Source: a bacterium (GTDB taxonomy: Bacteria; JAAXHH01). Taken from it: 64,000 nt of DNA. Shown piece by piece: positions 22,834-61,840 of the stretch. The position numbers and the translations under genes are program-made. The first letter of the stretch is position 1. Each line of letters begins with the position of its first letter. A model generated the notes under the pieces. That model was not told the DNA's origin, searched no databases, and saw only the letters and a list, made by a program, of their open reading frames with translations. Where the stretch lies: the NCBI GenBank assembly GCA_965117045.1, contig OZ220749.1, forward strand, positions 2,416,552 through 2,480,551, written 5' to 3'.

Positions 22834-23187
22834 TTAACCTGTTTCCGGCCAGTCGGCACCGGCTCCCGGACCGATAACATGCCAGTGCATGTGGGGCGTA
22901 ACGCCGGGTGCCGCCACGTTGGTCCTTACATAGAATCCGGCGTCATCCAGCAGGCCGGAGGAAGTCGCAGTCTGCTGGACGGCCTGCATCATCGAAGTGA
23001 GAAGATTCCCGTCCAGGGCGGCCTCATCCATGAGTCCCGCTACATGGGCTTTCGGTATGACGACCACGTGGACCTGGGCTACGGGTCTCGGATGATGGAA
23101 CGCCAGGACCAGATCGTCTTCATAGACGCGCTCTACGAGGAGTCTACCCGAAAGTACATCCTCGCAATACCAATCTCACCGAGGCAT
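22834..23187 (-). CDS. HIT (histidine triad) family protein, N-terminus interrupted by an in-frame TGA
   Basis: C-terminal HMHWHVI histidine triad and VVIPKAH block. The frame reads ATG-CCT-CGG-TGA and then continues DWYCEDVLSGRLLVERVYEDD with no canonical start codon. Confidence 0.5.
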
Positions 23188-23590
23188 AGATAACCCACTT
23201 TCTCATTCCTAAGGTGCTACCATTCGGATTGCCTTGATTATATCGTTAGACGTACCACTGCTTGTATCAGTGGATAGATCCCGATTAAACCGGAACACTT
23301 TAGTTCTTGCTATACCGATACGAGGCTATTTCATACCCGTAATATACTCCGACCTGAAGCGGTATCCATTCGTTTACTAGAAAAACTAACCTCGAACGGT
23401 CAGGGAGTAATGATTTTGCTACAGGCACGGAAGGTATACTCGACACTCATTTCGGGCGGAATTTCGGACCGCTACGGAAGAATCTGCGTTACGCTTCTCT
23501 ATCAAGCAGGTTGTAGCCTCGGCAGCCGACCAAGCTCAAGCATCTGTAAACGTACTGTGACAGTATGCAGATATGTAGAGAGGAGGGGGA

Positions 23591-45413: not shown

Positions 45414-46472
45414 TTACCATTTCTCCGGGTCCAGCCCGACCCGGATCCCGGCTTCCTCGATCTGCTGCCAGGTCGTGTCGTCGATGTTGATGCCTTCCCG
45501 CCGGCGCTTCGCCGCCAGGCGGAACTCCGGTTCGCCCGGCATGAGAATCTCGTCGAATCCCGGCGCCGTCCGGCTGGCCTTTACGTGCCGGATCATTCCT
45601 TCGATTTCCTCGAAGTACCATTCCAGGTCCGTAAAGAAGGAAATGTCGTAAACGGTGAAGAGTACCCCGTTGCTCGAAACGGTCTGTTCCCCCTGTGCGC
45701 AACCCTGTCCACTCAGCGTACCGCCCAGGATTTCCACGAGCATGCCCAGGCTGTACCCCTTGTGGGCGACGATGCCGCCCATGGGCAGGATCGCGCCGTT
45801 GGGCGGCGGACCTTTTATCACCGTAGGGTCGGTCGTAGGATTTCCTTCGTGGTCGATCAGCCAGCCTTCAGGAACCCGCACGCCCTTGTTCGCGGCCACA
45901 CGCACCTTGCCCTCCGCGACGACGGAGGTGGTCAGATCCACCATGACGGGATCGTCGTCCCGGCGAGGGGCCGAGAAGGCGATGGGATTGGTGCTGATGC
46001 GTCCGTCGATGCCGCCGAAGGGTGGTATCTGGCGTCCGAACCGGCCCGCGTTGACGAAGGCCAGTCCGATCAGCCCTTCCCGGGCCGCCATGAGCGGATA
46101 GGCGCCCACACGCCCCACATGACTGGTGCGCCGGAGGGAAACCGTGGCCGTGCCGTGTTCTCGCGCCTTCTTCATGGCCAGTTGCATGGCAATAGTACCG
46201 CCTACCTGGCCGAGGGCGCCGCCATTGTCCACCACCGCCGTGCACGGACTTTCCCGTAGGACCTGCACTTCGGCCTTCGCCTTGAATCGACCCTCGTCCT
46301 TGATGGCCTTGACGTATTCCGGAATTCGAATGGCGCCGTGGGAGTCGTGGCCGAAGAGATTGGAATCCACGAGATGGTCCACGACGCTGCGGGCGTCGTC
46401 CGCCGTACAGCCGGCCGCCTCCATCACTTCGCAGCCGATTCGATGCAGTTTGTCAGGGGTAATTACTGGCAT
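45414..46472 (-). CDS. Ldh family 2 oxidoreductase (malate/L-lactate/sulfolactate dehydrogenase-like)
   Basis: 352 aa. Conserved DSHG..R block (FGHDSHGAIRIPEY) and TNPIAF typical of Ldh_2. Confidence 0.75.
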   Translation of the reverse strand: MPVITPDKLHRIGCEVMEAAGCTADDARSVVDHLVDSNLFGHDSHGAIRIPEYVKAIKDEGRFKAKAEVQVLRESPCTAVVDNGGALGQVGGTIAMQLAMKKAREHGTATVSLRRTSHVGRVGAYPLMAAREGLIGLAFVNAGRFGRQIPPFGGIDGRISTNPIAFSAPRRDDDPVMVDLTTSVVAEGKVRVAANKGVRVPEGWLIDHEGNPTTDPTVIKGPPPNGAILPMGGIVAHKGYSLGMLVEILGGTLSGQGCAQGEQTVSSNGVLFTVYDISFFTDLEWYFEEIEGMIRHVKASRTAPGFDEILMPGEPEFRLAAKRRREGINIDDTTWQQIEEAGIRVGLDPEKW

Positions 46473-46490: not shown

Positions 46491-47540
46491 TTATCTGCTG
46501 AACTTCTCCAGTTTCCTCTTCAGTCCCGGACGGTCGAGCACTGCCCGGTTGACCACGTAGGGAGGCTCATCTCCCCGGGAGACGGCCAGGGCCGCCTTCA
46601 TGCAGTCGTGTCCGATATCGCGAAACAGCTCGTGGGTCCAACACGAAGCGTGAGGCGCCAGTATGACGTTGGGAAGGGACAGCAGGGGATCGTCGGCGTC
46701 TGGTGGTTCCCGCTCGAAAACGTCAATGGCCGCGCCTGCTATCCAGCCTTCCTGCAACGCCTGCTCCAGTGCTTTCTGGTCGACGATGGCGCCACGGGCC
46801 GTGTTGATCAGGAAGGCGTCCTCCCGCATCATGCGCAGTTCCCGCGGACCGATCAGGTACCGGGTGTGTTCGTTCAACGGGCAGTGGATGGTAACGAACG
46901 TGCTGCGCCGCAACAGGGTCTCCAGATCGACCAGGGTAACGCCCAGTTGCGCGGCCTCCTCCCCGGACACCGCGGGATCAGAGACCAGGATTTCGGACGG
47001 CTCGAAGGGCGCCAGCATGCGCACCACCTCGCGGCCGATCATGCCCATGCCGATCAGGCCGACCACGCGGCCCCGGATCTCGCATCCCATGTGATCGAAT
47101 CGGATGTCCCAGTCGTCGTTCCGTACGATGGCGTCCTTGATCGTCACCCGGTGGCAAAGACCGAGCATCAGGGCCATCGTCGCGCTCGCCACGGGTCTCC
47201 GCGTGGCCTCGGGGGTGATCGTCACCATGACGTCCGCTTCCGTCGCGGCGTCCATATCGATCATATCGTAGCCCACGCCCGTCCGGGCGATGAGCGCGAG
47301 ACGCTCGACGCCCGCGAAGGACTCCCGCGTGTAGGATTGTCCCATGGATATCACCGCGTCGAAACCGGCGAGCTGATCGGGAGTGACGGGACTCAGGTCC
47401 TCCTCCAGGAAGGCGCGGAAAACCCCGGCTTCGTCCAGCAGATCGACGCCGAAATCGTCAAACACGACCCCACCGTCGGGACCCAGCAGGTCGGCGACCA
47501 GGGCTACGCGGAATGCATCGGTCATAAACTGTCCGTTCAC
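46491..47540 (-). CDS. D-isomer-specific 2-hydroxyacid dehydrogenase family, NAD-binding
   Basis: Rossmann GLIGMGMIGREV. Catalytic-region pattern ...R...E...H (APHASCWTHE). Confidence 0.8.
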   Translation of the reverse strand: MNGQFMTDAFRVALVADLLGPDGGVVFDDFGVDLLDEAGVFRAFLEEDLSPVTPDQLAGFDAVISMGQSYTRESFAGVERLALIARTGVGYDMIDMDAATEADVMVTITPEATRRPVASATMALMLGLCHRVTIKDAIVRNDDWDIRFDHMGCEIRGRVVGLIGMGMIGREVVRMLAPFEPSEILVSDPAVSGEEAAQLGVTLVDLETLLRRSTFVTIHCPLNEHTRYLIGPRELRMMREDAFLINTARGAIVDQKALEQALQEGWIAGAAIDVFEREPPDADDPLLSLPNVILAPHASCWTHELFRDIGHDCMKAALAVSRGDEPPYVVNRAVLDRPGLKRKLEKFSR

Positions 47541-47572: not shown

Positions 47573-49621
47573 TCAGAACAGGATCTGGGACGTGGACTTG
47601 GCGATCAGCACCAGGGAGACGGCCGCCATGCCGATCAGCCCCAGGCCGCATCCGTATCCGGCCAGGATAACAGGTGCATAGGCCCGCCACCTTTTTTCTC
47701 CGTAGCGCCGTCCGAAATAGAACCTTCCCAGCATGGCGCCGATGAACGTGGGCAGCGTGTAGTGTATCCAGGCGCCGGTGCCCAGTCCCGCGACCAGACC
47801 GTAGAAGAGCAGCGGCGGGGCCTTGAGCAGGCTCAGGACCCCGTAGAGGGCCACCGTGAACCCCATCCCGGCGCCGATGTACTCCCACTTTATGAGTTGC
47901 CCGATCACATCCGATCCGCCCGGAAGGGTCGACTTGATCCAGATCGTTTCCATCGTCGCCTGCAGCGGCCACATCTTTTCTACGAAGGGATAGGCCGCGG
48001 ACGGTATGGGCGCCAGTTTCCAGATCAGGGCGTAGAACAGGAAACTGAATACGATGAGCAGCAACAGGCTCAATATATACAGTTTGACCAGGCTTGGAAA
48101 TCGCGTTCGGGTGAGTTCAAGCTGCCGGAAGGTCGCAACCACGCCGCTGTGATCGAAGAGCGGAACCGGCGCGAACCAGATGGCCACGCCCTTGTAGCCC
48201 GACAGGTAGAAGGACCCCTCTCGCGCGTAGGGGAAGGACGATCCGTAGGGCGAGCCCGTGAGGCCGATCATGCGCGCGCCGATGTAGGAGAAGAAGGGCG
48301 TCCACAGGAACCCGAATACCACGGAGATCCATACCGGGAACGAGGGTTCCAGGTAGTAGACCAGGAGGATGAAGCACACGGTCGAAACCGCCCAGAGCGC
48401 GATGGGAATGGGCAGCCTGAAATCGCCCCGGTCCGGCGGCGGCCGGCGGGGTCCCTGGCCTCCGGATGCGCCGTCCGGGTCTCGCCTCAGGGCGCGGGCG
48501 AAGGCGACCAGGCCGATCAGGCCGATGACCAGCGAAGTGCCGATCGAGGAGAAACTCAGCCAGAAATCGATGGTATTGTTGATGGAGGTGGGGATGGTGC
48601 TCATCCCCGGCGCCCAGCTGTGCAACAGGCCGAAGTGGTAGAGGGCCGGGTTGGCGATAAAGGTGACGACGAAGGAACTGATGAAGGTGCCGACCACGAT
48701 CCAGAAGGGAAGGACGAAACCCACCAGGAGCGTGGCCATGTCCGTGCCGATGCCGATGGGCGACGCGGGCAGCACGTCCCGTACCCGAGGCGTGAAGTCC
48801 GCGAAGGGAATGGGGAAGACCTCGACGCCCTTGGTCAGCACCACGCCCGATACCGTCGGGACGACCACGTAGAGTATGCCCCAGCCCAGGCCGATCATCG
48901 CGCCGACGGTAAACAGGCGCCATCGCCAGGTCTCCTCGCCCGCCGACGATTCCGCCAGCGCGGTGGCGCCGGCCGCCTGTACGGGCGCCAGGGGAAAGGG
49001 CAGGCGCTCGGTGTCGGCTGTGATCCGGAAGAGCACGTAGCCCAGGGAAAGGGCGTTGACCAGGCCGAGGATAGACACGAGGACGGCCAGGAGAATGGGT
49101 TCCAGCCACTCCATGGAGAAGAGGGTCCGAGTAATCAGCGAATCGGAACCCCGGGGCAGCGACACCCACTGCGGAAGCAGCTGGGCCAGGCCGTCCGCCT
49201 GGGGGGACTGGATCAGGTACTGGAACCAGATCATCTTGGCGAAAGGCGCGCCGTGCACCGACGATCCGGCGGCCATGCCGCTGGCGCCCAGTCCCGTTGC
49301 CGCCAGACCGGCGGCGAGCCAGTAGAGGATGATGGCTTCCTGGGGCTTCAGCTTGATGAACAGGCGCTTCCCGATCTCGATGAACATGATGATGGTGACC
49401 CATTCCGCGGCGCCCGCGAAACTCTTTCCGGTCACCAGTTCCAGGTAGATCGCCCCCGGAAGCATGACCAGCCCGACGAAGAAGGCGGCCCAGATGATCC
49501 GGCTGCTGAACCCGTCCTCGTAGGGCAGGCTGTCCGGAACGATCTGCCACCGGTCGTCCTGTTCGGCGGCCGCCGCGTCCTGGTCCCGCGGTTCCTGCTG
49601 TTCACGCCTGGTGTCACTCAT
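47573..49621 (-). CDS. large polytopic membrane protein of unknown function (paralog B)
   Basis: 682 aa, at least 14 hydrophobic segments. Shares blocks with the 715-aa protein (G.GAPF...P..W; YIG.R.IG..G.PY). Charged N-terminal tail. Confidence 0.55.
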   Translation of the reverse strand: MSDTRREQQEPRDQDAAAAEQDDRWQIVPDSLPYEDGFSSRIIWAAFFVGLVMLPGAIYLELVTGKSFAGAAEWVTIIMFIEIGKRLFIKLKPQEAIILYWLAAGLAATGLGASGMAAGSSVHGAPFAKMIWFQYLIQSPQADGLAQLLPQWVSLPRGSDSLITRTLFSMEWLEPILLAVLVSILGLVNALSLGYVLFRITADTERLPFPLAPVQAAGATALAESSAGEETWRWRLFTVGAMIGLGWGILYVVVPTVSGVVLTKGVEVFPIPFADFTPRVRDVLPASPIGIGTDMATLLVGFVLPFWIVVGTFISSFVVTFIANPALYHFGLLHSWAPGMSTIPTSINNTIDFWLSFSSIGTSLVIGLIGLVAFARALRRDPDGASGGQGPRRPPPDRGDFRLPIPIALWAVSTVCFILLVYYLEPSFPVWISVVFGFLWTPFFSYIGARMIGLTGSPYGSSFPYAREGSFYLSGYKGVAIWFAPVPLFDHSGVVATFRQLELTRTRFPSLVKLYILSLLLLIVFSFLFYALIWKLAPIPSAAYPFVEKMWPLQATMETIWIKSTLPGGSDVIGQLIKWEYIGAGMGFTVALYGVLSLLKAPPLLFYGLVAGLGTGAWIHYTLPTFIGAMLGRFYFGRRYGEKRWRAYAPVILAGYGCGLGLIGMAAVSLVLIAKSTSQILF

Positions 49622-49625
49622 CCGC

Positions 49626-50783
49626 TTATTCGGTCCTTACGTAGTCGCCCGCCTTGTCCCAGTCCGGCCGCGACAGGCCGTTCAGGTCCCAGACCACCTC
49701 GCCGGCCCGCACCGTCAGCAGGCACCTCAGCCGCCGGTCGCCGCGCATGCGCGCATGGCCCGAGTCCACGAAACCGAATTCTCCGTATTCCAGCTCCAGC
49801 ACGGCGACGTCCGCCTCCGCGCCGATGCTCAGCGTACCCAGTTCCGGGCGCCGGATGGCGCGGGCGGGATTGCGCGTGGAGCGCATGACCACGTCCTCCA
49901 GCGTCATTCCCATGTTCAGGCATTTGGACATGGTCGTGTTCATGCTCGCGTTCGGTATCAGGGCGCTGTACTTGTGGAGGTCCGTGCTGATGGTATCCGG
50001 CAGGAACCCCTGCTCGATGGCCGGCACGGCGATGCGGAACCAGAAGCTGCCGCCGCCGTGGCCCAGGTCGAACAGGATGCCCTTGTCCCGCGCCTCCCGG
50101 ACGTAGTCGTTCACCCGGCCGTGCCCGTCCAGCAGGGGGATGTGCTGCGCGTAGAGGTGCGTATGAATGTCGCCGGGACTCAGCTTCTTCAGCAGCAGGT
50201 CCCGGTAGCTGCGGGTCGGCTTCGGCGCGAAATCGATCATGGCGATGGTGCCGCTCCGCCGGGCCGCCTCGACGGCGCCGTCCACCGCCTCCCATCCCGG
50301 TCCCCCGAAATGGGCGGTCTTGGACCCGACGACGTGTTCCGGGTACCTGCTGATCATGTCCGCGCAGGGTACCGGGTCCATCTCCGAGACGTCCTGCTCC
50401 ACGGCGCCTTCCATGCCGGCGCCCACGATGTTGATCAGCGCCAGCACGCGGGTAATGGACTCGGCGATGACCGTGTCCTTGAAGTCTTCGAACTTCTTCC
50501 ACCCCGCGCCCCCCGTATCCAGCACCGTGGTCACCCCGTTGGGGAGCACATGGGCGTCGGGGAAAACCCACCCCCGGTATCCACCGTAAGCGTGCATGTG
50601 GATGTCGATCAGCCCGGGCGTGACGTAATGGCCGTGGACGCGGGCGACCTTCCGGCCGTGCTCCGCCGGGATGTCGTGCTCCACCGCCGCGATCAGGCCG
50701 TTGTCGACGGCTACGTCCCGGCTTCCGCTGATGCCGTTCTCGGGATCGATGACGTGGCCGCCCTTGATGATCAGATCGTACAT
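49626..50783 (-). CDS. amidohydrolase-family metallohydrolase (D-aminoacylase / dihydroorotase-like)
   Basis: HxH metal motif DIHMHAYGG. Additional His/Asp ligands (HTHLY..., DLGHGGG). 385 aa. Confidence 0.7.
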   Translation of the reverse strand: MYDLIIKGGHVIDPENGISGSRDVAVDNGLIAAVEHDIPAEHGRKVARVHGHYVTPGLIDIHMHAYGGYRGWVFPDAHVLPNGVTTVLDTGGAGWKKFEDFKDTVIAESITRVLALINIVGAGMEGAVEQDVSEMDPVPCADMISRYPEHVVGSKTAHFGGPGWEAVDGAVEAARRSGTIAMIDFAPKPTRSYRDLLLKKLSPGDIHTHLYAQHIPLLDGHGRVNDYVREARDKGILFDLGHGGGSFWFRIAVPAIEQGFLPDTISTDLHKYSALIPNASMNTTMSKCLNMGMTLEDVVMRSTRNPARAIRRPELGTLSIGAEADVAVLELEYGEFGFVDSGHARMRGDRRLRCLLTVRAGEVVWDLNGLSRPDWDKAGDYVRTE

Positions 50784-50802
50784 CGCCGCTCCTCTCCTCC
50801 GA

Positions 50803-53800
50803 TTACAGGGCCGTGTGACGATCGAAAGCCCTGACGTCCCGGTACCGCGCCTTTATGGGCTCGGCAATGGTCCGCCACACGAGAAACCGCTTCCTCAGTA
50901 CGGTAAAGAACCGCCGATTGATCGTCTGCCACTGCGCCAGGTCGCCGCTGCGTCGGTGGATCACGATCAGGATGCGGTACAGTCTCTCGTGAAGCACGGG
51001 TTCCAGTTCAAGCCGCACGTCCTGGCTGATGGCGAGGTCATAGGGCGCCAGCCAGACGGTGGACGCCACGTGATACGTGTCGAAGGTATCCCCCGGTATC
51101 GCGTCGAGCGTGGTTCCCTCCGCGACGAAGTCCTCCGCCGAACTGTCTTCATGCGTCTGGAAGATGTGGTTCAGGTAACCCGACAGCGGCAACGCTTCGG
51201 GGACGGTCACCGTGAAGGGAAACTCGAAGCACCAGTCGTCTTCGTCGGGCGGCGGGGGCGACCAGCGACGCGTCACGTCCTCTACCGTCATGTCCGCGGC
51301 CTTCTTTGCCGGGTAGAGGGTGGACAGGAAGACGATGGCCATGACGACCACCGTGGCGTACACGGTCGACAGGGAGGAATAGTTGAGCGACATGCCGCCC
51401 AGCAGGTCGAATTGCGAGAGTCCCATGGTGATGATCTGGCCGGCCAGGTAACCGAAGACGGCCCCGAGGGTCGCGAACACGGCGGCTTCGGCGATGAACA
51501 GGGCGGCGACGTGGTTCGGCGCCAGGCCGACCGCGCTGTAGACGCCGATTTCCCGGAACCGTTCGAACACGGCGCCCATCATGGTGTTCAACACCAGGAA
51601 CGCCGCGATGAGCACCGGGATGATCAGGTTGGCCAGGCCCGAAACCGAAGTGGCGCCCAGGGAGCTGTAAACCCTTACCTCGTCTTCCAAGCCGACGAAC
51701 ACGGCCAGGAGGACCCGCGACATGAAGGCCTCCACGGAGTCGCGGAGCTCTTCGCCGCCGTCGAAGCCCGCGATCGCCACGGACCGCGTGGACCCGTTCA
51801 GGTCGAGCGTCTGCCGGTAGGGCAGGACCAGCACGTTGCGGGACGGCAGGTGCTCGGAGGCCTGGATGGTGGACATGAACACCTCCACGTCCATTTCGGT
51901 CAACGAGCGCGTTATCGAGAAGCTGGCGGGCATGATGCTTTCGTCGTCCATGTCCCGGTAGGCGTCGAATCCATCGGAATCGAGCAGTCCGATCACGGTA
52001 TAGCGTCCACCGAGGATCTCCACCTCCGCCGTACCCACGTCCTCCGGTCCCACGTCCAACCGTTCGGCCAGTTCCGTGGGCAGCAGGCAGGCCGCCCTTT
52101 CGTCCGGGGCGAACCACCGTCCGCCCGGCACCAGGTAGCGGTCCAGACCGGTGACGGCCGGTTCGTCGGCGTGCAGTCCCAGGATGGACTGTACCGTGCT
52201 GGCGGTCCCCTTGCCCGGCGCGCGCAGATCGATGTAGGGACTGGTCATGTCCTCCGGCTCGTACCAGGACCGGGGCACCACGTCCGCCTGGTCTTCGAAG
52301 GCGTTTTCCACGTAGGGCAGGAAGGACGTGGGCAGGGAGTGCCACGACAGGCTGCGCATGAGGACGCCGTCGTACGGCGGGGTGTTCTCACGGTCCAGCG
52401 TATAGAACTGGATGCCGGTCCGAAAGGAAGTGAAGGACAGTACGGTGAAGGTCAGCAGGGTCAGCGTGACCGCCGTCAACGCCGTGCGCATCTTCCGCTT
52501 GCGCAGGTTCGATATGCCCAGGGAAATGGCCACCGCCGTGGCGCTCAGCCGGCCGATGTCCGCCTCGTGGAGGCCGGCCGCCGACCGGGTCAGGTTCTTC
52601 ATTTCGGTGTCGAACCGGGTGACGATCATGGTGATGATGATCAGCGCCATGGCCAGGATGATGAAGGCGAGAAAGACCATGTACGGCGTCAGGCTGAGCT
52701 GAAAGGCGGGGTGCACGTTCTGCAGCAGCATGAAGACCGCCGCGAAGATGACGCCCACCGAGGCCAGCCGCTTCCGAATGTCTGTGAAACCGAAGAACAG
52801 CCGTTCGAGGAAGAAACAGAAGGGGACGAGCAGCATGAAGTAGAACACGATGCCGTCCACCGTGTCGTCCGCGGCGTACCGCACGTCGGGATAGGCCCGC
52901 GCCTCGTAGCCCCACGCCTCCCTCGACTGTGCGGCGAAGGCGTCGTACCGGCGGTTCTCCAGGGCTTCCCGGGCGGCTCGAAGCGCCCGGGTGCTTTCCT
53001 CGTGCAGCTCGGCGGCCCGGGCGTTGGTCACGCCGTGGTCCTCCAGTTTCATCAGGCGGGCCCGGTTGAGCGACCACAGGTCCAGGGCGCTCTGGTAGAA
53101 GGGGTAGAGGATCAGGCCCTGGTCTGCCGTGAATCCGCGTCCCTGGGCGAGGGCCATGGCGTCGTCCGAGATACTTTCCGGCGGATCGTCGAGCCACGAT
53201 TCGGGCGTGTTGGTCAGCAGGTACTTGACGCCCCGGGGACCGGAGCTCATGAACATCTTGACCCGGTCCTCGGCCCGGGCGAAGACCACCGCGGCGTTGG
53301 TCATCCAGTTGCCGAAGAAACTCTGATCCTCCACGAAGGCCGCGCCGTACTTGCGCAGCGGACTGTTGTCCCGGCCGAGTACGGTCAGGTTGTCGAGGGC
53401 GACGAAGACGCCGGGGTCCACGATGTCGAAGAGGTTGATCTCCTCGCAGGGGAAGAGGACCTGGATGGTATTGTTCACCTTGGAAGAATTCGGCACCGCG
53501 AGGGGAAAGGTGGCGTTGCCCTCTTCACCCAGGTCCGGGGCGTACACGATCCGGCCGTCGACGCCCAGGCCGTAGCTGCGCAGTTCCGTCGGTCCCCGGG
53601 GGAACCGGACCATGGAATGCCTGAAGTGCCCCAGCGAGTCGGCGTGGGTAACCATGAACCCCCGCACGCCGCTGTGGCTCTGGTATCCGGGCTCGTAGAC
53701 GACCAGGGCATCGGACACCGGGGTATTGGGCTTGAAGAAATCCACCGTGCGGTCGAATTCGAGGACCCGGCCCTCGATGTCGCGGCCCTCGTCCTTGAGC

Positions 53801-55371
53801 CGTATCGACTCGTCCACGTCGAAGGCTTCGGGATCGGACAGCATGGCGGGAAGCAAGGTGCCGAGCGTCCGGATCTGCCGGACCAGGTTGGGGAAATCGA
53901 CATACTCGATCCGGTCCTTCGGGGTATCGATGAGGAGCCGGTTGTCGTTCACCGTGGCGAAGGTCATGCCGTGGAGTCCGGCGAGCGTGACCATCTCGTG
54001 GTCGAAGGCGGGCCCCGCGGGCATGAAGCTCTCCTGCGACCGGAGCGGGTGCGTCAGCGTGTTGAGGTAGGCCGTCCGGCTGTCCACTTCATCGTGGACC
54101 CCGGCCTTGCGCGCGTAATTCAGGTACCGGTCCGCGTAGGGTTCGAACAGGATATCCAGATTCGAGGTGAAGAAGATGAAATCGCCGTAGCTGAACAGGC
54201 CGACCTGATCCGCCCTGCTGGTCAGGTCCAGGCCCAGGAAGAGCGTGAAGGGTATCCGGTCTTCTTCAGATATCCGCTCCAGGAAGAACTCGTCCTTCCG
54301 CTGGTGCCGGTCCAGGAAGTCGTTTACGCCCTGCAGCCCGTGGAAATGGGCGGACGTGGCCAGGAACAGCACGGTGTATCCCGGCGGATGGGCCCGGAGC
54401 ACGTCCATCAGCTCCAGCATGGCGGCGATGCCCCCCGCGCCCTCGGCGCCCGGCGCCAGTCCCGGTACGACCGACATGGCGTCGTAGAACGCCGACAGCA
54501 CGACGGTCCGGTCTTTCCATTTCTCCGTGCCGTCGCCCCCCGGCAGCGGTTCGTCCCGGCCCGGTATCCACCCCATGACGTTCCAGGTCTCGGCCCGCTC
54601 CCAGGTCATGCGTCCCCGGATCGTCACTTCGACCTCGCCGGACCGCGCGGCCGCCAGGACCGCGGCGGCATGCGGGTCCGGGACCCAGAAGCGCGGCACG
54701 TCGGCGGGCACGTCCAGGATCTTGCGCTGGGCCTGGTTGTTGGTTACCGCGCCGGGGCCGTTGTCGTAGAACAGGACAGCCTGCGCGCCGAGCATACGCG
54801 CGTTGAGATACTGGTCGCGCCCGTCGAAATCGACCAGGACGATGCTGCCCTCGATCTCCTTCCCGTTGAAGGCCTGGAACTCGCCCTGCCGGCCGTAGTG
54901 CAGGGGGCCCCGGATCCCGTCCGGAAAGGAGTTCAGCCGGACCAGGTTGGGCCAGAACTGGTACACCGGTATCTCGGTCTCCACGGAGTCGTGCACGGTC
55001 AACGTGAAACCGTGGTCGACGGGCGAGGATACGGTAAAGGTGTCGACGGCGACCTCGGTCAGGCCGCCGGCATGGAAGGCATCGACCACGTATTCCATGG
55101 CCGCCCGGTTTCCGGGATAGCCGACGACGCGCGACGGGTTTTCGCTCATCGCCCGGACATGGGCCTCCACGCGTTCCGGGGTGACGATTTCGGATACCTC
55201 TTCCCAGGACACCGGCGCCTCCTCGAGGGGCCTGGGCGGCACGTCCTCGGGAAGGGATACGATCCTCAGGATCACGTGTTCCGTCACCCAGGCCGGCCCG
55301 GCCACGGCCACGGCGAGGAACAACAGGACGCCCACGGCGAGGAAGAAGGTTCCGAATATCCGCGAATACAC
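50803..55371 (-). CDS. giant fusion protein: TM + PA/M28-peptidase-like ectodomain + complete MacB/FtsX-type permease + C-terminal domain
   Basis: GTG start. N-terminal TM. PA-domain-like GSIVLVDFDGRDQYLNARMLGAQAVLFYD. M28-like block YDAMSVVPGLAPGAEGAGGIAAMLEL. Multi-TM linker. MacB-like TM1 (RKRKMRTALTAVTLTLLTFTVLSF) then a roughly 300-aa periplasmic domain. FtsX 3-TM bundle (NTMMGAVFERFREIGVYSAVGL...). Roughly 200-aa cytoplasmic tail. Continuous 1522-codon ORF. Confidence 0.7.
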   Translation of the reverse strand: MYSRIFGTFFLAVGVLLFLAVAVAGPAWVTEHVILRIVSLPEDVPPRPLEEAPVSWEEVSEIVTPERVEAHVRAMSENPSRVVGYPGNRAAMEYVVDAFHAGGLTEVAVDTFTVSSPVDHGFTLTVHDSVETEIPVYQFWPNLVRLNSFPDGIRGPLHYGRQGEFQAFNGKEIEGSIVLVDFDGRDQYLNARMLGAQAVLFYDNGPGAVTNNQAQRKILDVPADVPRFWVPDPHAAAVLAAARSGEVEVTIRGRMTWERAETWNVMGWIPGRDEPLPGGDGTEKWKDRTVVLSAFYDAMSVVPGLAPGAEGAGGIAAMLELMDVLRAHPPGYTVLFLATSAHFHGLQGVNDFLDRHQRKDEFFLERISEEDRIPFTLFLGLDLTSRADQVGLFSYGDFIFFTSNLDILFEPYADRYLNYARKAGVHDEVDSRTAYLNTLTHPLRSQESFMPAGPAFDHEMVTLAGLHGMTFATVNDNRLLIDTPKDRIEYVDFPNLVRQIRTLGTLLPAMLSDPEAFDVDESIRLKDEGRDIEGRVLEFDRTVDFFKPNTPVSDALVVYEPGYQSHSGVRGFMVTHADSLGHFRHSMVRFPRGPTELRSYGLGVDGRIVYAPDLGEEGNATFPLAVPNSSKVNNTIQVLFPCEEINLFDIVDPGVFVALDNLTVLGRDNSPLRKYGAAFVEDQSFFGNWMTNAAVVFARAEDRVKMFMSSGPRGVKYLLTNTPESWLDDPPESISDDAMALAQGRGFTADQGLILYPFYQSALDLWSLNRARLMKLEDHGVTNARAAELHEESTRALRAAREALENRRYDAFAAQSREAWGYEARAYPDVRYAADDTVDGIVFYFMLLVPFCFFLERLFFGFTDIRKRLASVGVIFAAVFMLLQNVHPAFQLSLTPYMVFLAFIILAMALIIITMIVTRFDTEMKNLTRSAAGLHEADIGRLSATAVAISLGISNLRKRKMRTALTAVTLTLLTFTVLSFTSFRTGIQFYTLDRENTPPYDGVLMRSLSWHSLPTSFLPYVENAFEDQADVVPRSWYEPEDMTSPYIDLRAPGKGTASTVQSILGLHADEPAVTGLDRYLVPGGRWFAPDERAACLLPTELAERLDVGPEDVGTAEVEILGGRYTVIGLLDSDGFDAYRDMDDESIMPASFSITRSLTEMDVEVFMSTIQASEHLPSRNVLVLPYRQTLDLNGSTRSVAIAGFDGGEELRDSVEAFMSRVLLAVFVGLEDEVRVYSSLGATSVSGLANLIIPVLIAAFLVLNTMMGAVFERFREIGVYSAVGLAPNHVAALFIAEAAVFATLGAVFGYLAGQIITMGLSQFDLLGGMSLNYSSLSTVYATVVVMAIVFLSTLYPAKKAADMTVEDVTRRWSPPPPDEDDWCFEFPFTVTVPEALPLSGYLNHIFQTHEDSSAEDFVAEGTTLDAIPGDTFDTYHVASTVWLAPYDLAISQDVRLELEPVLHERLYRILIVIHRRSGDLAQWQTINRRFFTVLRKRFLVWRTIAEPIKARYRDVRAFDRHTAL

Positions 55372-55372
55372 G

Positions 55373-57367
55373 CTAGTCTATCCCGTAGATATGATGGCCG
55401 GCGTGGGGAAACCACACGTAGTCGACGAACATGGAGATGACCACGCCGGTGACCACGCCGAAGATCAGGCCCAGGAAGAAGGGCTGTCCCTTCCGGTACA
55501 GTTCGATGCCGCCGACCCACATCATGATGCTCTTGATGACCCAGCACACGAACATGGACGAGACGATCGCCCGGGCGGGCCAGGAGTATGAAAGGAAGAA
55601 TCCGAGGGGATGCAGCGGCCAGCCCGGCAGCCGGGCCCTCAGCGTCATGAGCAGAAACATGAGCGCACCGCCCACCATGAAGAACATCAGCCGCGCCGTG
55701 TCCGGTCCGAAGGGATCTCGCATCTTGGTCAGTGTTTCATTGTAGGGGATGGTCGATCCGATCCGGCCGAACCACCAGCCGTTGGTGAACTGGCGCGTAC
55801 CCAGGTCGAACCCCATGTAGATCGTCCAGACCAGCGAGATCACCACGCCGATCACCGCGGCGGAAAGAAGCGACCAGCCCAGGCCGCGTTGCCAGCGCGT
55901 GCCGATCTCGGACAGCTTGGCCGCCTGCATGAAGGCGGGCATGAAGGTCGACTTGATCTCGCTGACAGGTCCGTAGGTCTGAGCCATGGCCGTCATGGTG
56001 GACATGGAAAGGTTGGCCGACCCGACCGAATAGAACACGAGCACCTGGGCGATCATGGGCGAACGCACGTAGGGCAGCCCGGCCTCGGCGATGATTCGGG
56101 ACACGCCGATATAGATGATGAACACGCCGGCGAGGAGGAATACGGCGATGGGCACGCTCATGCCCAGCTGGTTCAGCCAGACCACCCCGTAGACGAAACC
56201 GCCGATGAATCCGAAGACCGCGACCCGGTAGGGCAGCATCTCGTCCGAGTCGTCCAGGTCCGACCTGCGGCCGAAGGCCTGGGAGACCACGGCGCGGATG
56301 TGAAACCGCGCCCGCCAGAGCCCCCATCCCACGAAGAGGATGAACGCGCCCATGTTCTGCCAGTCCAGCATGGGATGGATCGAGGTGTAGTTGTCCCGTC
56401 CCGGGATGTCGTACCCGATCCGGTGGGCGATGCCCACCTGGATGATCCCGATCATGTAGAATACCCAGAAACCGGCGAGGACGTCCAGGTTGACGAAATA
56501 GGAAATGCCCAGGATGGCCGGGCGGAAGTTGATTTCCAGCGGCGGAAAACCCTCGCCGAACACGATGGGCGGCGCCGACCCGAAATAGGGGAACTGGGGC
56601 ACGACCGGGGTGAAGAACCCGACGATGTTGTACATCATCACGCAGAACGGGATCGAAAAGCCGATCCAGAACCGCTTCTCCGAGAGAAAGGCCGGGATTC
56701 GGCTCGGCGAATCCATGCCGCGGGTGAAGGCGAGGGGGATCTGCATCATGGGAAAGACGAGCTTCTCGTGTTCGACCCACTGCCGCCTGAGGATGACCAC
56801 GAGACACAGGCCCATGAAGATGATCGGGACGATGAAGGTCAGCCACCAGAACAGCGGAATGCCCCACACGCTCCAGGGAATGGACGCGCCGGGCGGGATC
56901 CCGTCCACCAGCCACGTAAGGGCGTTGCCCTGGTTCGTGACGTTCGCCCAGGGTTGCAGGTACGGGTAGAAGTACTCGGCCCACTGGTTCTCGGGCGTCG
57001 CCAGCAGATAGGGGGCCATCAGCGTGGAGATGAACGGGGCGCCCATGCCGTTGGTCGTCAGCCCCGATGCCGCCATGCCCATGACCAGGGGGATGACGAA
57101 CTCGTGGGGCGTGAGGGCCCAGTCCTTCTTCCACCTCGCCAGCACCACGTTGAATATGACCAGGTACCCGAAGGCCAGAAACAGCGCGCCGATGTGGAGA
57201 TGATCCGCGCCCAGCTGGGACGAGGCCATGGTGTACTGGAAATAGGGGACGATCAGGGAGATCAGGACGACGCTCGTCAGGCCCAGGAGAATGGATCGCG
57301 GCGTAATGATCCGGGTCGCGGTCGCACGGACAGCGGAGGCGGAAACACTTTGCTGTACTGAGGCCAT
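55373..57367 (-). CDS. large polytopic membrane protein of unknown function (paralog A)
   Basis: Start moved to MASVQQ at 57367. The longer ORF runs to 57520, but its first roughly 50 aa look like translated intergenic sequence. Stop is 1 nt from the GTG start of the fusion gene. Homologous blocks with paralog B. Confidence 0.55.
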   Translation of the reverse strand: MASVQQSVSASAVRATATRIITPRSILLGLTSVVLISLIVPYFQYTMASSQLGADHLHIGALFLAFGYLVIFNVVLARWKKDWALTPHEFVIPLVMGMAASGLTTNGMGAPFISTLMAPYLLATPENQWAEYFYPYLQPWANVTNQGNALTWLVDGIPPGASIPWSVWGIPLFWWLTFIVPIIFMGLCLVVILRRQWVEHEKLVFPMMQIPLAFTRGMDSPSRIPAFLSEKRFWIGFSIPFCVMMYNIVGFFTPVVPQFPYFGSAPPIVFGEGFPPLEINFRPAILGISYFVNLDVLAGFWVFYMIGIIQVGIAHRIGYDIPGRDNYTSIHPMLDWQNMGAFILFVGWGLWRARFHIRAVVSQAFGRRSDLDDSDEMLPYRVAVFGFIGGFVYGVVWLNQLGMSVPIAVFLLAGVFIIYIGVSRIIAEAGLPYVRSPMIAQVLVFYSVGSANLSMSTMTAMAQTYGPVSEIKSTFMPAFMQAAKLSEIGTRWQRGLGWSLLSAAVIGVVISLVWTIYMGFDLGTRQFTNGWWFGRIGSTIPYNETLTKMRDPFGPDTARLMFFMVGGALMFLLMTLRARLPGWPLHPLGFFLSYSWPARAIVSSMFVCWVIKSIMMWVGGIELYRKGQPFFLGLIFGVVTGVVISMFVDYVWFPHAGHHIYGID

Positions 57368-57562: not shown

Positions 57563-57603
57563 TCCATACCTTGGATGTGCGCGTTTCACACGAGGAATGC
57601 ACC

Positions 57604-60144
57604 GTGAAGGCCGAGACCAGAGCCGCCATAGACCGCTTCCTGAACAGGTATATCGCCTTCATATGCCGCCATCCGGCCAAGGTCCTGCTGTTCGCGCTGC
57701 TTTCCGCCTCCCTGTCCGTCCACTTCGCCTCCAGGCTTCAGCTGAAAACCGACTTCGTCGAACTGCTTCCCGAAGGCTACCGGAGCGTCGACGACATAAA
57801 CCGGCTCACGGAGCGCGTCGGCGGCATCGGCAACCTGACCATCGTCATAGAAACGGAAGACCTTCCCGCCGCCCAGCGGTACGCCGACGACCTCGCCGGC
57901 CGGCTGCGGTCCGATCTCCCGGAAGGGTATGTCCGCTACATCGAGTACCGGGTGGACGACGAGAAGCGGTTCTACGAAGACCACAAGTACCTGTACGCCG
58001 ACCTGGAAGACCTGGAAGAGATCCAGAGCCGGCTGAGCCGGCAGATCCTGAAGACGAAACTGGAGCAGAACCCCCTATTCGTCTCCGAGGAAGACCTCGG
58101 CCTGGAGGTGGAAGACGAGCCGTTCACCGTGAGCGACCTGGAGGAGAAGTACGAGCAACAGGCGTCGGAGAAGCTGGACAAGTGGGTCGACGGGTATTTC
58201 ACGGGACACGACGAGCAGGGGCGGTTTCTCGTCATGGTCCTGAAACCTTTCGGATCGTCGACCGGCGTGACCTTCTCGCGGGACCTGTGCGAACGGGTGC
58301 TGGCCATCGCGGAAGGGCTCGAACCCACGTCCTACCACCCGTCGCTGAAGGTCGGCCTCACCGGCAAGTACCGCCTGATCCTGGACCAGTACGAGTCCGT
58401 CAACCGGGAGATCTTCACGTCGGCCGGCGTCACGCTGTCACTGGTCGCCCTGGCCATATTCCTCTACTTCCGCACTATCGTACCGGTCATCAACATCACG
58501 CTGGTCGTGGTCGTCGGCATCCTCTGGACGTTCTGCCTGACCTACTTCCGCATCGGCTACCTGAACATGCAGACCGCCTTTCTGGGCGCCATCATCATAG
58601 GGAACGGCATCAACTATGGCCTGATCCTGATGTCCAGGTACAAGGAAGAGCGGCTGCGGGGCGAAAACGCACGGGACGGCGTGCAGATCGCCTTCCGGAA
58701 CACGCTCACGGCGACGGTCACCTCGGCGGCTTCCACCGGCCTGGCTTACGGCACGCTCATGATCACCGATTTCCGGGGCTTCAACCATTTCGGGTTCATC
58801 GGCGGCCTGGGCATGCTGCTGTGCTGGCTTTCGACCTTCTCCATCCTGCCGGCGCTGCTGATGCTCTGGGACCGCACCGCGTTCGGACGGCAGACCTGGA
58901 CCCGGAAGGTCTCACGGGGCCGGTCGATGAGCCGTCTCGCCAACCTGGTGCAGAAGAAGCCGCGGGCCGTGGTAGGCACGAGCGCCTCCCTGGTGCTGCT
59001 GGGCGCCGTACTGCTGGTGTGGTGGCTTCCGAACTCCTTCGAGTACGACTTCTCGAAACTCCGCAACGAGCCGCGGGGCGACACCTACGAGCGGATCCTC
59101 AACCACCGCGTCAACGCGCTCTTCGGCATTTCGCAGTCGCCGGCCGTCATCCTGGCAGACCGCCTGGACCAGGTGCCGGGCATACGCCGGGCCGTGCTGG
59201 ACAAGAAAGAGGCCGAAAGGGAAGTCCCCAATCCGACCATCGACCGGGTCCGGACCATTTACGACCTGCTGCCGGAGGACCAGGAGGACAAGATCGACGT
59301 CCTCTGGGACATCGAGTACATGCTCGACACGAATCCGCCCGACGAACTCGGCATCCCGCCCGATCAGCTCGCGAAGATTAACGATTTCCGCGACAACCTG
59401 AACCTGGACGGGATCACCGTGGACGACCTGCCCGAAGCGCTCACGCGGCCCTACGAGGAGCGGGACGGTACGGTGGGCAGGCTGATCTACGTCTACCCGA
59501 GGTCGGACGCCGGGCTCTGGAACGGCCGTAACCTGATCCGGTTCGCGGAGGTCGTCCGTTCCAACCGCCTGCCGGACGATGAGATCATCTATTCTTCCGG
59601 GGAGGCCGTGGTCTTCGCCGATATGCTAAAGGCCGTGGACCGCGACGGGCCCCTCGCCACGATCGCCTGCTTCGTGGGCGTGATCACGCTCCTCGTACTG
59701 GCGTTTCGAAGCATCCACGCGTCGGTGGTCATCCTGGCCTCCCTGCTGGGCGGCATGCTGGTCATGGGCGGGGTCATCGCCGTCTTCGACATCAAGGTGA
59801 ACTTCTTCAACTTCATCGTCATTCCCACTACGCTGGGCATCGGAGTGGACTACAGCGTGAACCTGTATCAACGCTACCGCCTTGACGGACGAGGTTCCAT
59901 ACGTAATATGGTACAGCATACGGGCGCGGCCCTGGTCATGTGTTCCTCCACGACGCTGATCGGGTACACCTCGCTCATGCTGACGTCCAACCGGGGCCTG
60001 CATTCCTTCGGGATCATGGCCAACGTGGGAGAGATCGCCACGCTGGCGACGGCCCTGATCGCACTGCCCGCCTACCTGCTCATCATGGAAAAGCGGATGG
60101 GGAACAGGACGCCGGAACCGCGGGATCCCCTCCGGGCCGCCTGA
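57604..60144 (+). CDS. MMPL/RND-superfamily transporter (two 6-TM sterol-sensing-like domains)
   Basis: Two repeated halves, each with a large periplasmic loop followed by a TM bundle (GAIIIGNGINYGLILMSRYKEE...; TTLGIGVDYSVNLYQRYR...). GTG start 57604 preferred over TTG 57571. Confidence 0.8.
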   Translation: MKAETRAAIDRFLNRYIAFICRHPAKVLLFALLSASLSVHFASRLQLKTDFVELLPEGYRSVDDINRLTERVGGIGNLTIVIETEDLPAAQRYADDLAGRLRSDLPEGYVRYIEYRVDDEKRFYEDHKYLYADLEDLEEIQSRLSRQILKTKLEQNPLFVSEEDLGLEVEDEPFTVSDLEEKYEQQASEKLDKWVDGYFTGHDEQGRFLVMVLKPFGSSTGVTFSRDLCERVLAIAEGLEPTSYHPSLKVGLTGKYRLILDQYESVNREIFTSAGVTLSLVALAIFLYFRTIVPVINITLVVVVGILWTFCLTYFRIGYLNMQTAFLGAIIIGNGINYGLILMSRYKEERLRGENARDGVQIAFRNTLTATVTSAASTGLAYGTLMITDFRGFNHFGFIGGLGMLLCWLSTFSILPALLMLWDRTAFGRQTWTRKVSRGRSMSRLANLVQKKPRAVVGTSASLVLLGAVLLVWWLPNSFEYDFSKLRNEPRGDTYERILNHRVNALFGISQSPAVILADRLDQVPGIRRAVLDKKEAEREVPNPTIDRVRTIYDLLPEDQEDKIDVLWDIEYMLDTNPPDELGIPPDQLAKINDFRDNLNLDGITVDDLPEALTRPYEERDGTVGRLIYVYPRSDAGLWNGRNLIRFAEVVRSNRLPDDEIIYSSGEAVVFADMLKAVDRDGPLATIACFVGVITLLVLAFRSIHASVVILASLLGGMLVMGGVIAVFDIKVNFFNFIVIPTTLGIGVDYSVNLYQRYRLDGRGSIRNMVQHTGAALVMCSSTTLIGYTSLMLTSNRGLHSFGIMANVGEIATLATALIALPAYLLIMEKRMGNRTPEPRDPLRAA

Positions 60145-60184
60145 TGCCGATGACGCCGACTTCGCAGCCCTGCCGATCGGGTAT

Positions 60185-61840
60185 GTGTCGAACAAGGCCG
60201 GTTACATGAACGCTCATGCAGTGGATTACCGCCAGGTGTTGCCGGACCACCTGCTGCATACCTTTCTCGAAGACTTCGAGTCGTTACGGTCTTTCTATAC
60301 CCACGATCCACGGGACCCGGAGGTATGGCCGCGCATGATCGAGGCCGTGCAGTCCCGCGCCGTTCCACCGCCGCGAAAGGCGCTCGCCAAGATCCTCGAG
60401 GCACAGAACGCCCGTTACGGGGCGGACGAAACCGTCCTCGCCAACACCCGTTCCCTCGCAGGGGAAGATGCCTTCGTCGTTTCCACCGGGCAGCAGACGG
60501 GCCTGTTGACGGGTCCGCTGTTCACCATCTACAAGGCCGTGACGGCGATCAAGCTGGCGAGACGGGTCTCGGAGGAGACCGGCGTGCGGGCCGTGCCCGT
60601 TTTCTGGATGGCCGCCGACGACCATGATTACGCCGAAATCAACCATGTCCATGTCTGCCGCACGGACGGGAACGCCCTCAGGTTCGAGCTGAGCCCCGAC
60701 GACCCCAACGACCGCCGGTCCGCGAGCGACCGCCTGCTCGGACCCGGAATCGAAGCGCTGCTCGGGCAGTTCGCCGAGGCCCTGCCCGATTCGGAGTACC
60801 GCCCGTCCGCCATCGAGGCGCTTCGGCGGCACTGTACCGCCGGGACCTCGTTGTCCGACGCTTTCGCGCGGCTCATGACACTGCTGTTCAGGGAACAGGG
60901 CCTGGTCCTCGTGGACCCCACCGACCCGGCGCTGAAACCCCTTATGCGTTCCGTGTTCGAGCAGGAAATCCTGGAACCGCTCGCCACCACGCGTTCGGTC
61001 CTGGAGGCGTCCCGCGATCTGGAGGACGCCGGGCTGCATCCCCAGGTCTCCCGATCCCCGGACGCGGTGAACCTGTTTCTGTACGAGGACGGGCAGCGCA
61101 ACGCCCTGCGCTACGAGGACGGGCGGTTCAGCAGCCGGGACGGAAGCCTTTCCTTCACCGGCGAGGAACTGCTACGGATGCTTAAGGATACACCCGGTCG
61201 GTTCACGCATAACGTCATCACCCGGCCCCTGGTGCAGGACACGCTGTTCCCGACGCTGACCTATATCGGCGGACCGGCGGAAATCGCCTACTACGGCCAG
61301 CTCGGCGGGGTCTACCGCCGGTCCGGCCTGCCCTTCCCCGTGGTCTATCCCCGCGCGTCCCACACGCTGGTCGGCGCGAGGACCGCCCGGGTCCTGGAGA
61401 AGCACGGCCTCGCGATCTCCCATTTCGTCCAGGGCATCGAATCCGTGGTCGACCGAAAACTCCGGGAAGAGATGCCGGTACCGGTCACCGAGGGTCTCCG
61501 GGCCGCACGAGGCGACGTGGAAGCCCATTACAGAAACCTGAAGGGACAGGTGACCGCCATCGATCCCGGTCTGAGCCGGATCGTCGAGGCCTCGGAGCGG
61601 AAGACTAACTTCGCCCTGGGCAGGCTGGAGGAAAAGACCCTCCGCGCCCTGAAGAAGGCGGACGGTGTCATGCGCGGCCAGATCATGCGGGCGGACCGCC
61701 TGTTGTATCCCAACGGGCACCTCCAGGAACGGGTGGCCAACATCTGGCAGTACGTCGCCCTGCACGGATTCGACGTCATGAACACCATCTTCGAGGCCAC
61801 GGACGAAACGGACTTCAGACACAGGATGACCCCCCTATGA
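60185..61840 (+). CDS. bshC: bacillithiol biosynthesis cysteine-adding enzyme
   Basis: Roughly 540 aa with the BshC-characteristic block VSTGQQTGLLTGPLFTIYKAVTAIKLA and C-terminal coiled region. GTG 60185, or the ATG at 60206, could be the start. Confidence 0.75.
   Translation: MSNKAGYMNAHAVDYRQVLPDHLLHTFLEDFESLRSFYTHDPRDPEVWPRMIEAVQSRAVPPPRKALAKILEAQNARYGADETVLANTRSLAGEDAFVVSTGQQTGLLTGPLFTIYKAVTAIKLARRVSEETGVRAVPVFWMAADDHDYAEINHVHVCRTDGNALRFELSPDDPNDRRSASDRLLGPGIEALLGQFAEALPDSEYRPSAIEALRRHCTAGTSLSDAFARLMTLLFREQGLVLVDPTDPALKPLMRSVFEQEILEPLATTRSVLEASRDLEDAGLHPQVSRSPDAVNLFLYEDGQRNALRYEDGRFSSRDGSLSFTGEELLRMLKDTPGRFTHNVITRPLVQDTLFPTLTYIGGPAEIAYYGQLGGVYRRSGLPFPVVYPRASHTLVGARTARVLEKHGLAISHFVQGIESVVDRKLREEMPVPVTEGLRAARGDVEAHYRNLKGQVTAIDPGLSRIVEASERKTNFALGRLEEKTLRALKKADGVMRGQIMRADRLLYPNGHLQERVANIWQYVALHGFDVMNTIFEATDETDFRHRMTPL

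Follow-up and report, generated by a model that had tools for sequence, protein, structure and literature searches.

Permeases of the MacB/FtsX type are understood as ATP-driven mechanotransducers. What does a protein do that carries such a permease behind a large peptidase-like ectodomain, and that is encoded in a locus without an ATPase gene? The question is raised by a fusion gene, here labelled FUS, at positions 50803..55371 (minus strand) of a 64,000-nucleotide stretch of a bacterial contig (OZ220749.1 of assembly GCA_965117045.1), which we refer to as the window. An earlier note, made from the letters of the window, had described the fusion and missed what turned out to be its most informative feature, namely the genes next to it: in 83 of 86 related loci, FUS has a neighbour with the fold of the OPT/YSL transporters. 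FUS is the signature gene of a conserved module that contains one or two OPT/YSL-fold secondary transporters, and together these genes point to an undescribed bacterial uptake system.

The neighbours were surveyed with a hidden Markov model (HMM) scan of 86 distinct FUS-related loci. Two kinds of gene recur next to FUS, one encoding a DUF6785 protein and the other p682, a polytopic protein named for its 682 amino acids (aa) in the window. Both are present in 34 loci, only p682 in 26, and only DUF6785 in 23; the three loci that have neither are contigs shorter than 10 kb. The distance from FUS to its OPT-fold neighbour has a median of 28 nt and is within 100 nt in 51 loci, and the two genes share a strand in 72. 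The gene order varies (DUF6785-FUS, FUS-p682, FUS-DUF6785-p682, DUF6785-FUS-DUF6785), and nine contigs are common to two homologue lists. The linkage is asymmetric: the reciprocal expectation, that DUF6785 is always accompanied by FUS, fails in three of three distant homologues. These FUS-less loci carry sulfatase, isomerase and dehydrogenase genes and have the look of carbohydrate/sulfatase catabolism.

Several loci show further variations on this arrangement. An 8-Mb genome (L006, 1241..14545) carries a tandem of DUF6785, FUS (1505 aa), DUF6785 and FUS (1514 aa), and a third copy lies in another part of that genome (L002). In most of the window's close relatives (L009, L011-L015, L017; first ~1.0-1.3 kb) there is an additional DUF6785 copy about 9 kb upstream of the fusion gene, whose equivalent here would fall just past position 64000. 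In two unrelated loci (L003, 4700..7993; L005, 4580..7828) a Pfam-less protein of ~1,090 aa is encoded upstream of the module. Convergent DUF6785 pairs without a fusion gene were also seen (L095, 8001..11964; L096, 8001..11919), amid sulfatase, AP_endonuc_2, SDR, GFO_IDH_MocA, DUF1611 and histidinol-dehydrogenase-like genes; this setting is a hint that the substrates of some DUF6785 transporters are not peptides.

In the window, FUS is the second gene of a minus-strand operon. The first is the DUF6785/DUF6784 gene (55373..57367), which encodes an OPT/YSL-fold transporter of 664 aa when read from the ATG at 57367; its open reading frame (ORF) reaches a TTG at 57520. A single nucleotide separates its stop codon from the start of FUS (TAG C GTG). 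After FUS and a gap of 19 nt comes a gene for a metallohydrolase of the amidohydrolase/deacetylase family (49626..50783; 385 aa; NCBIfam NF006689, 370.7 bits; Pfam Amidohydro_1/3), and 4 nt further on is p682 (47573..49621), which has no Pfam match and is 50% identical to the fusion-adjacent gene in L002. The operon continues, after 32 nt, with a D-2-hydroxyacid dehydrogenase family gene (46491..47540; Pfam 2-Hacid_dh_C, 5e-55) and ends, after 18 nt, with a malate/L-lactate dehydrogenase (Ldh_2) family gene (45414..46472; Pfam Ldh_2, 8e-107). Relatives L009-L017 agree with this layout in their gene spacing.

That the DUF6785 protein has an OPT/YSL fold over its whole chain is seen in its structure model (pLDDT 92, pTM 0.92). 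A Foldseek search with this model matched the OPT/YSL fold with E = 3e-9, probability 1.00 and TM scores of 0.63/0.68, and every other match had a probability of 0.21 or less. p682 is a remote full-length paralogue of DUF6785 and may be expected to share the fold: a first comparison of shallow profiles gave a probability of 25%, and hhalign with deep alignments gave 94.7% (E = 6e-8, 564 columns). Neither protein matches the OPT models (Pfam PF03169, TIGR00728, TIGR00733) in Pfam or NCBIfam, and their profiles, shallow or deep, match neither YS1 nor any other solved structure; for this reason we speak of an OPT fold, and not of membership in the Pfam OPT family. With the OPT/YSL transporters (TC 2.A.67; barley YS1, PDB 7wsr and 7wst) the partner proteins thus share the fold but not the sequence, and they are filed as DUF6785/DUF6784 or under no family. 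The characterised OPT members are cation-symport importers of oligopeptides, glutathione and metal chelates, and the prokaryotic members, of ~650-690 aa, are biochemically uncharacterised (PMC3061005). YS1, of the OPT/YSL superfamily, is a proton-coupled, elevator-type, homodimeric symporter (PMC9691689).

FUS itself is a single continuous gene, as the earlier note had read it. It is found in the ORF list and its translation as a frame of 1522 aa on the minus strand, a strand that the earlier note had not given, with a GTG start and a stop codon at 50803-50805, and a search of 5.8 billion proteins returned 563 homologues. Full-length collinear relatives of 1480-1600 aa, with identities between 37% and 97%, occur in Gemmatimonadota, Latescibacterota, Zixibacteria and Planctomycetota, and forms of 1.7-2.0 thousand amino acids (kaa) also occur among the relatives. 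At least 594 loci of the family turned up when one genome per GTDB species was scanned, the top match being a Gemmatimonadetes metagenome-assembled genome (VXTP01000016.1, 97% identity); some matches lie on closed chromosomes, and many genomes hold at least two copies. The family comprises more than 1,200 clusters at 50% identity, mainly from Gemmatimonadota, Latescibacterota and related, largely uncultured phyla, and its members carry public labels such as 'FtsX-like permease family protein', 'M28 family peptidase' or 'hypothetical'. The frameshift that the earlier note had considered, one that splits the gene into a peptidase and a permease, is not the case here: a frameshift or mis-join is excluded by the full-length homologues across this range of identity and by the number of loci.

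One might still suppose that a peptidase gene and a permease gene were wrongly joined, or that the genuine gene is the 1589-aa, ATG-initiated plus-strand ORF (50671..55440) that overlaps FUS on the opposite strand. We regard this as having practically no chance of being correct. Hundreds of independent assemblies, some of them closed chromosomes, hold full-length collinear homologues, and the short FUS matches are contig-end fragments. The plus-strand ORF was rejected as a gene: its translation, rich in R, G, H, D, E and V, is compositional noise, and the minus frame has all the domain matches and homologues. It is an antisense shadow typical of DNA with 65% GC, of a kind that could mislead gene callers.

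The family also includes larger members. Three giants, P0361 (3053 aa), P0363 (2930 aa) and P0367 (2769 aa), contain the whole FUS architecture behind an N-terminal extension of ~1,100-1,240 aa, and forms of 1.7-2.1 kaa have insertions inside the ectodomain. A shorter, 'minimal' architecture for the tail or the MacB module was considered and rejected: the matches of 560-830 aa begin at arbitrary profile positions, which identifies them as fragments.

The architecture of FUS was determined by placing transmembrane segments (TMs) by hydropathy and domains by Pfam matches above the curated cut-offs. FUS is an inner-membrane protein with eight TMs: one at residues 5-23, three within 837-917, one at 965-983 and three within 1243-1352. 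These segments, together with a basic NLRKRKMRT stretch just ahead of TM5, fit an N-in topology, in which residues 24-836 and 984-1242 face outwards (into the periplasm, in a diderm) and residues 918-964 and 1355-1522 are cytoplasmic. All of the following features are on the minus strand. The N-terminal anchor TM1 (55303..55359; hydropathy peak 2.72) is followed by the core of a PA domain at residues 168-214 (54730..54870; Pfam PF02225, 26.2 bits; found in 18 of 29 sampled family members) and by an M28-like domain with a remodelled site at residues 284-498 (53878..54522; Pfam PF04389, 36.6 bits against a cut-off of 21.3). Residues 499-836 (52864..53877; family conservation 0.57-0.58) carry no annotation and comprise a beta-rich part and then a helical stalk. 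A three-TM linker at residues 837-917 (52621..52863; conservation 0.71) leads into a cytoplasmic loop at 918-964 (52480..52620; conservation 0.68), which ends in the basic stretch. TM5, at 965-983 (52423..52479), is the equivalent of MacB TM1 and, with a conservation of 0.85, the best conserved part of the protein. It is followed by a MacB-type periplasmic domain at 984-1242 (51646..52422), the FtsX three-TM bundle at 1243-1354 (51310..51645; Pfam PF02687, 52.1 bits over residues 1252-1361) with the coupling-helix motif VFERFREIG, and a C-terminal cytoplasmic tail at 1355-1522 (50806..51309). Conservation is highest in the membrane (TM5 0.85, FtsX TMs 0.77, TM2-4 0.71) and runs from 0.46 to 0.60 in the ectodomain. 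The domain order thus agrees with the one first described, and the sizes differ: the ectodomain has ~810 aa and not ~600, the periplasmic domain ~260 and not ~300, and the tail ~165 and not ~200.

The ectodomain belongs to the PA-in-M28 type of PSMA and the transferrin receptor (TfR), as had been suggested: the PA core precedes the M28 core, M28 is matched in 28 of the 29 members, and the family profile matches solved structures of this type. The best of them is the PA-aminopeptidase 2ek8 (9e-18, profile positions 59-354), and the same profile also matches YwaD, the Aeromonas aminopeptidase (AAP), nicalin (6e-7) and TfR (~4e-6, positions 58-207); the TfR and 2ek8 matches together span ~58-354. 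With the single FUS sequence, nicalin is matched at E = 0.02. The nicalin match extends over only ~70 residues of generic M28 core. The helical dimerisation domain of TfR (TFR_dimer) was not detected, as no Pfam match appears in residues 499-836 at E <= 10.

Is this domain still a peptidase? The earlier note had found the zinc-binding and Glu-Glu motifs non-canonical and had proposed mapping the metal ligands, which was done with printed alignments to YwaD and AAP and with a 121-sequence family alignment; the last two positions (D382, H458) were placed by motif and spacing and not by printed alignment. The suspicion is confirmed. The HxD motif reads F295-Y-D297 and the Glu-Glu pair reads H342-F343. 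The first His ligand is F295 in the window protein and F, Y or H in 50, 45 and 26 of the 121 sequences, and the bridging Asp is E310 (Glu in 118). The general-base Glu is replaced by H342, a His in all 121, and the ligand Glu by F343 (Phe in 109 and never Glu). The second Asp ligand is kept as D382 (Asp in 120), and the last His ligand, H458 here, is Ser in 73, His in 23 and in others Ala. The window protein therefore reads FEHFDH at these positions, and the complete canonical set HDEEDH is found in none of the 121 family members.

The further suggestion, that the domain may be a non-catalytic binding module like TfR, is supported, with a caveat. The canonical set is gone, and on the sequence evidence canonical M28 chemistry appears excluded; but the site has not merely decayed, as another set of polar residues is near-invariant in its place. 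Each of D297, E310, H342, D382, E459 and R478 is retained in at least 118 of the 121 sequences, so the site may yet have a non-canonical activity, and a binding pocket is the simplest reading. The known M28-fold proteins without the catalytic residues, TfR, nicalin and nicastrin, are non-catalytic. Like PSMA/GCPII, TfR, nicalin, nicastrin, 2ek8 and YwaD, FUS has a PA domain inserted in an M28 fold that a membrane anchor tethers on the outer side, and it shares with TfR, nicalin and nicastrin the absence of the canonical metal-binding and catalytic residues. It differs from the TfR group in that its site carries another invariant residue set instead of a simple degradation, in that its M28-like domain is fused to a polytopic, transporter-type membrane part, and in that TFR_dimer is not detected. 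A pocket that is remodelled yet invariant offers a natural case for studying how peptidase folds become receptors or new catalysts.

In the membrane, FUS forms a single half-transporter of the MacB/FtsX type, and its coupling-helix motif is intact. The multi-TM linker and the complete MacB-type module that had been described are both borne out: the FtsX domain is present in all 29 sampled members, MacB_PCD is matched in 10 of the 29 (the window protein gives no match at E <= 0.01), the alignments of MacB chains start at profile position ~1193, and the PDB matches of the family profile include YtrF, MacB, LolC and LolF. The layout, TM5 followed by 260 residues and then three TMs, is that of the MacB/FtsX type. 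The coupling helix VFERFREIGVYSAVG aligns with SVTERYREIG of bona fide short FtsX proteins in near-invariant columns.

Behind the last TM stands a tail with a helix-grip/KA1-like fold (beta-alpha-beta4-alpha), which has no sequence match in Pfam or PDB. Among 1.84 billion cluster representatives, searched exhaustively with phmmer, the tail domain occurs in 1204 proteins (567 of them at E <= 1e-10), always at the extreme C-terminus. From this position, from the fragmentary nature of the short matches and from the giants, which hold the whole architecture, it follows that the tail is a private signature of the fusion family. It was also considered as a degenerate ATPase, that is, a P-loop nucleotide-binding domain (NBD) with Walker A, Walker B and signature motifs, and this was rejected on the basis of its fold.

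Compared with MacB, LolCDE, FtsEX and YtrF, FUS shares the four-TM FtsX-type unit, the large periplasmic domain between the first two TMs and the conserved coupling helix. It differs in having no fused or conserved adjacent ATPase, and adds four N-terminal TMs with the 810-aa pseudo-peptidase ectodomain, the unique ~150-165-aa helix-grip-like tail and the linkage to secondary transporters. While the ectodomain of FtsEX regulates separate hydrolases, in FUS a hydrolase-like domain is fused. ADOP, the duplicated orphan permease (TIGR03434), is likewise a FtsX/MacB-type permease without an adjacent ATPase, but it is an internal duplication of MacB_PCD and FtsX of ~800 aa without a peptidase-like domain, whereas FUS has a single FtsX unit.

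How, then, might FUS be powered? The earlier note's statement that the locus has no ATPase holds for the window, where no Walker A followed by an ABC signature occurs in any frame of the 64 kb, and for the 10 kb around FUS in most related loci. ORFs with ABC motifs lie near FUS in only a minority of loci and are mostly at least 8 kb away. One of these, the ABC ATPase at least 8 kb downstream in L001, was rejected as a partner because it belongs to an unrelated BPD_transp_1 importer, and the ATPases of L018-L025, at the same position and with similar scores, were set aside with it. The statement does not hold in four independent lineages of the 86 loci, in which a LolD-type ATPase and a short FtsX protein join the FUS operon. 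In L007 (17586..20524), L029 (7999..11110) and L078 (16423..19709) the order is FUS, p682-like, p320, PqqD-like, short FtsX and LolD-type ABC; L082 (16351..17762) has FUS, p682, short FtsX and ABC without p320 and the PqqD-like gene, and here the short FtsX overlaps p682 by 4 nt. The short FtsX has 214-228 aa and nearly no ectodomain, p320 is a conserved, Pfam-less protein of ~320 aa, and the PqqD-like protein has ~130 aa. The p320 proteins of different loci are homologous, as are the PqqD-like ones, so the extended arrangement is inherited.

The operon ATPase scores best against LolD and then against the MacB, DevA, YbbA and DarD models, with FtsE slightly lower; by these profile scores it is of the class that drives FtsX-type permeases. 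The absence of an ATPase from the locus therefore does not establish that FUS works without one. The pair of short FtsX and ATPase also occurs widely by itself in the same phyla. These findings support, without proving it, the view that FUS may be powered in trans by forming a heterodimer with a short FtsX, by analogy with LolC/LolE. Among the best 120 matches to the pair, none lies on contigs of the genomes closest to the window. In L089-L092 (8195..11498; one Gemmatimonadetes assembly and matching metagenome contigs) and L093 (7313..11622) a short FtsX/LolD-like pair adjoins an S41 (CtpB-like) processing protease, far from FUS, and this pairing recalls the FtsEX-protease neighbourhoods of other bacteria. 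A large MacB/FtsX family with a fused pseudo-peptidase and no conserved ATPase challenges how such modules are thought to be powered and used.

Our preferred reading, which we put forward tentatively and with less than even confidence, is that FUS is a membrane-tethered periplasmic device that captures a ligand and hands it over to the OPT-fold importers. The PA/M28-like pocket would bind a ligand that resembles a peptide or contains an amide, and would probably not hydrolyse it in the canonical way; FUS would pass it to the OPT-fold partners, which would import it by cation symport, the mechanism of the characterised OPT members; and in the cytoplasm the amidohydrolase and the 2-hydroxyacid and Ldh_2 dehydrogenases of the operon would metabolise it. 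The MacB-type module might serve as a conformational scaffold, or it might be driven in trans by a LolD-type ATPase and a short, ectodomain-less FtsX. The proposed logic resembles that of the binding-protein-dependent secondary transporters TRAP-T and TTT, where an extracytoplasmic capture component likewise serves a secondary transporter, and is comparable with that of the binding proteins of ABC importers. There is no homology to TRAP-T or TTT, and FUS is an integral 8-TM fusion and not a soluble or lipid-anchored binding protein. Several observations weigh against this proposal. The tie between FUS and the OPT-fold proteins rests on synteny, which cannot separate a complex from a sequential pathway, and the OPT relationship of DUF6785 and p682 is at the fold level only. 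All three distant DUF6785 homologues examined on long contigs lack a fusion gene within 8 kb, so the transporters are independent of FUS, and a peptide is not necessarily their substrate. Conservation is stronger in the membrane segments than in the ectodomain, which one would not expect of a simple ligand receptor, and residues 499-836 match no Pfam family. The pocket, strongly conserved and with a His in place of the general base, might still be catalytic, and the invariant coupling helix speaks for the need of an ATPase, which would make the MacB part an active machine rather than a scaffold.

The last two points lead to other explanations. FUS might be an active, non-canonical periplasmic peptidase, in which a one-metal pocket (E310, H342, D382 and E459, plus H295 or H458 in some members) trims peptides or amides, the OPT-fold neighbours import the products, and the MacB module positions or gates the enzyme as FtsEX does. 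Six polar residues are retained in the former active site, which is not what a decaying pseudoenzyme would show, the OPT linkage would suit such a peptidase, and a His is found at the first ligand position in 26 of the 121 sequences and at the last in 23. The general-base position has an invariant His, and the window sequence was also aligned to PDB 2anp, an Aeromonas aminopeptidase chain with His there; this E151H variant retains some activity. We consider this explanation unlikely, as the Zn1 ligand Glu occurs in no sequence and has become Phe in 109, Phe or Tyr replaces the first His in 95, the canonical set occurs in none, and those M28-fold relatives that have lost these residues (TfR, nicalin, nicastrin) do not catalyse, two of which, nicalin and TfR, are sequence matches here. 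About equally improbable, in our judgement, is that FUS is a type VII ABC mechanotransducer, a heterodimer with a short FtsX that is powered by a LolD-type ATPase encoded elsewhere and extracts, expels or remodels an envelope component, the OPT-fold genes being just co-regulated, for example to recycle released products. The near-invariant ERFREIG motif favours it, as do the extended operon of three lineages with its shorter, 4-nt-overlapping form in L082, the match of the ATPase to the LolD, MacB, DevA and YbbA models, and the nearly ectodomain-less short FtsX, which with its ATPase is a widespread stand-alone pair in the same phyla. However, about 80 of 85 loci, and the whole window, are without the pair (within 10 kb in the former); the Gemmatimonadota genomes examined have the pair beside an S41 protease, in housekeeping surroundings that are unrelated; the conserved ~150-aa domain that follows the last TM would occupy the place where the NBD docks in MacB and LolCDE; and the near-universal OPT linkage would be left unexplained. 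Still less probable is a structural, gating or biogenesis subunit in the manner of nicalin and nicastrin, which caps and stabilises the polytopic OPT-fold transporters with the pseudo-M28 domain as a lid and has no transport or catalysis of its own. Nicalin is among the sequence-detectable relatives of the M28 core, the best-conserved parts are the membrane segments and not the ectodomain, and the translational coupling suggests stoichiometric co-production; but the nicalin match is limited to the generic core, DUF6785 homologues that occur without FUS need no FUS for folding or function, and a complete MacB module with a unique cytoplasmic domain exceeds the needs of a lid.

To return to the capture and hand-over reading, it has a bolder form, which we regard as doubtful: the module would be a new class of uptake machine, in which an ATPase-less MacB-type protein is physically coupled to elevator-type symporters of the OPT fold and a tethered pseudo-M28/PA receptor delivers the ligand. 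If true, a type VII ABC-like permease would for the first time be seen in the service of a secondary transporter, and DUF6785/DUF6784 and the prokaryotic OPT-fold proteins would gain their first functional handle. Our literature search found no paper on an OPT transporter with a MacB-type or M28-like accessory, none that mentions DUF6785 and none that mentions an M28-FtsX fusion. The OPT-fold assignment for DUF6785 and p682 and the pairing of a MacB-type protein with secondary transporters have not been described before; all the domains of FUS belong to known superfamilies, and it is the fusion itself and the private tail that are undescribed. With this assignment two uncharacterised families, DUF6785/DUF6784 and p682, which has no Pfam entry, gain a fold and a plausible role as transporters, and they are tied to a specific accessory. 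This offers a hypothesis that can be tested for the prokaryotic OPT-fold transporters, which are uncharacterised in biochemical terms. That FUS is often multi-copy suggests a lineage-specific strategy of nutrient acquisition.

A few other features of the window deserve mention. The second permease that the earlier note had pointed out, a plus-strand gene at 12428..14833 (801 aa), contains two stretches each of MacB_PCD and FtsX, which is the ADOP layout and by definition one without an adjacent ATPase; it is flanked by S-adenosylmethionine (SAM)-methyltransferase genes at 11180..11902 and 14881..15693. The GC content is 0.50-0.55 at positions 1..4000 and 20001..24000, against 0.60-0.67 elsewhere, and these two stretches may be foreign DNA; the sole Walker A motif of the window (GRPGSGKT, minus strand, near 20434) lies inside the second. 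Divergent from the FUS operon, on the plus strand at 57571..62562, are genes for an MMPL/RND-type membrane protein (857 aa), BshC and a PIG-L (BshB-like) deacetylase, of which the BshC and BshB-like genes are bacillithiol biosynthesis genes.

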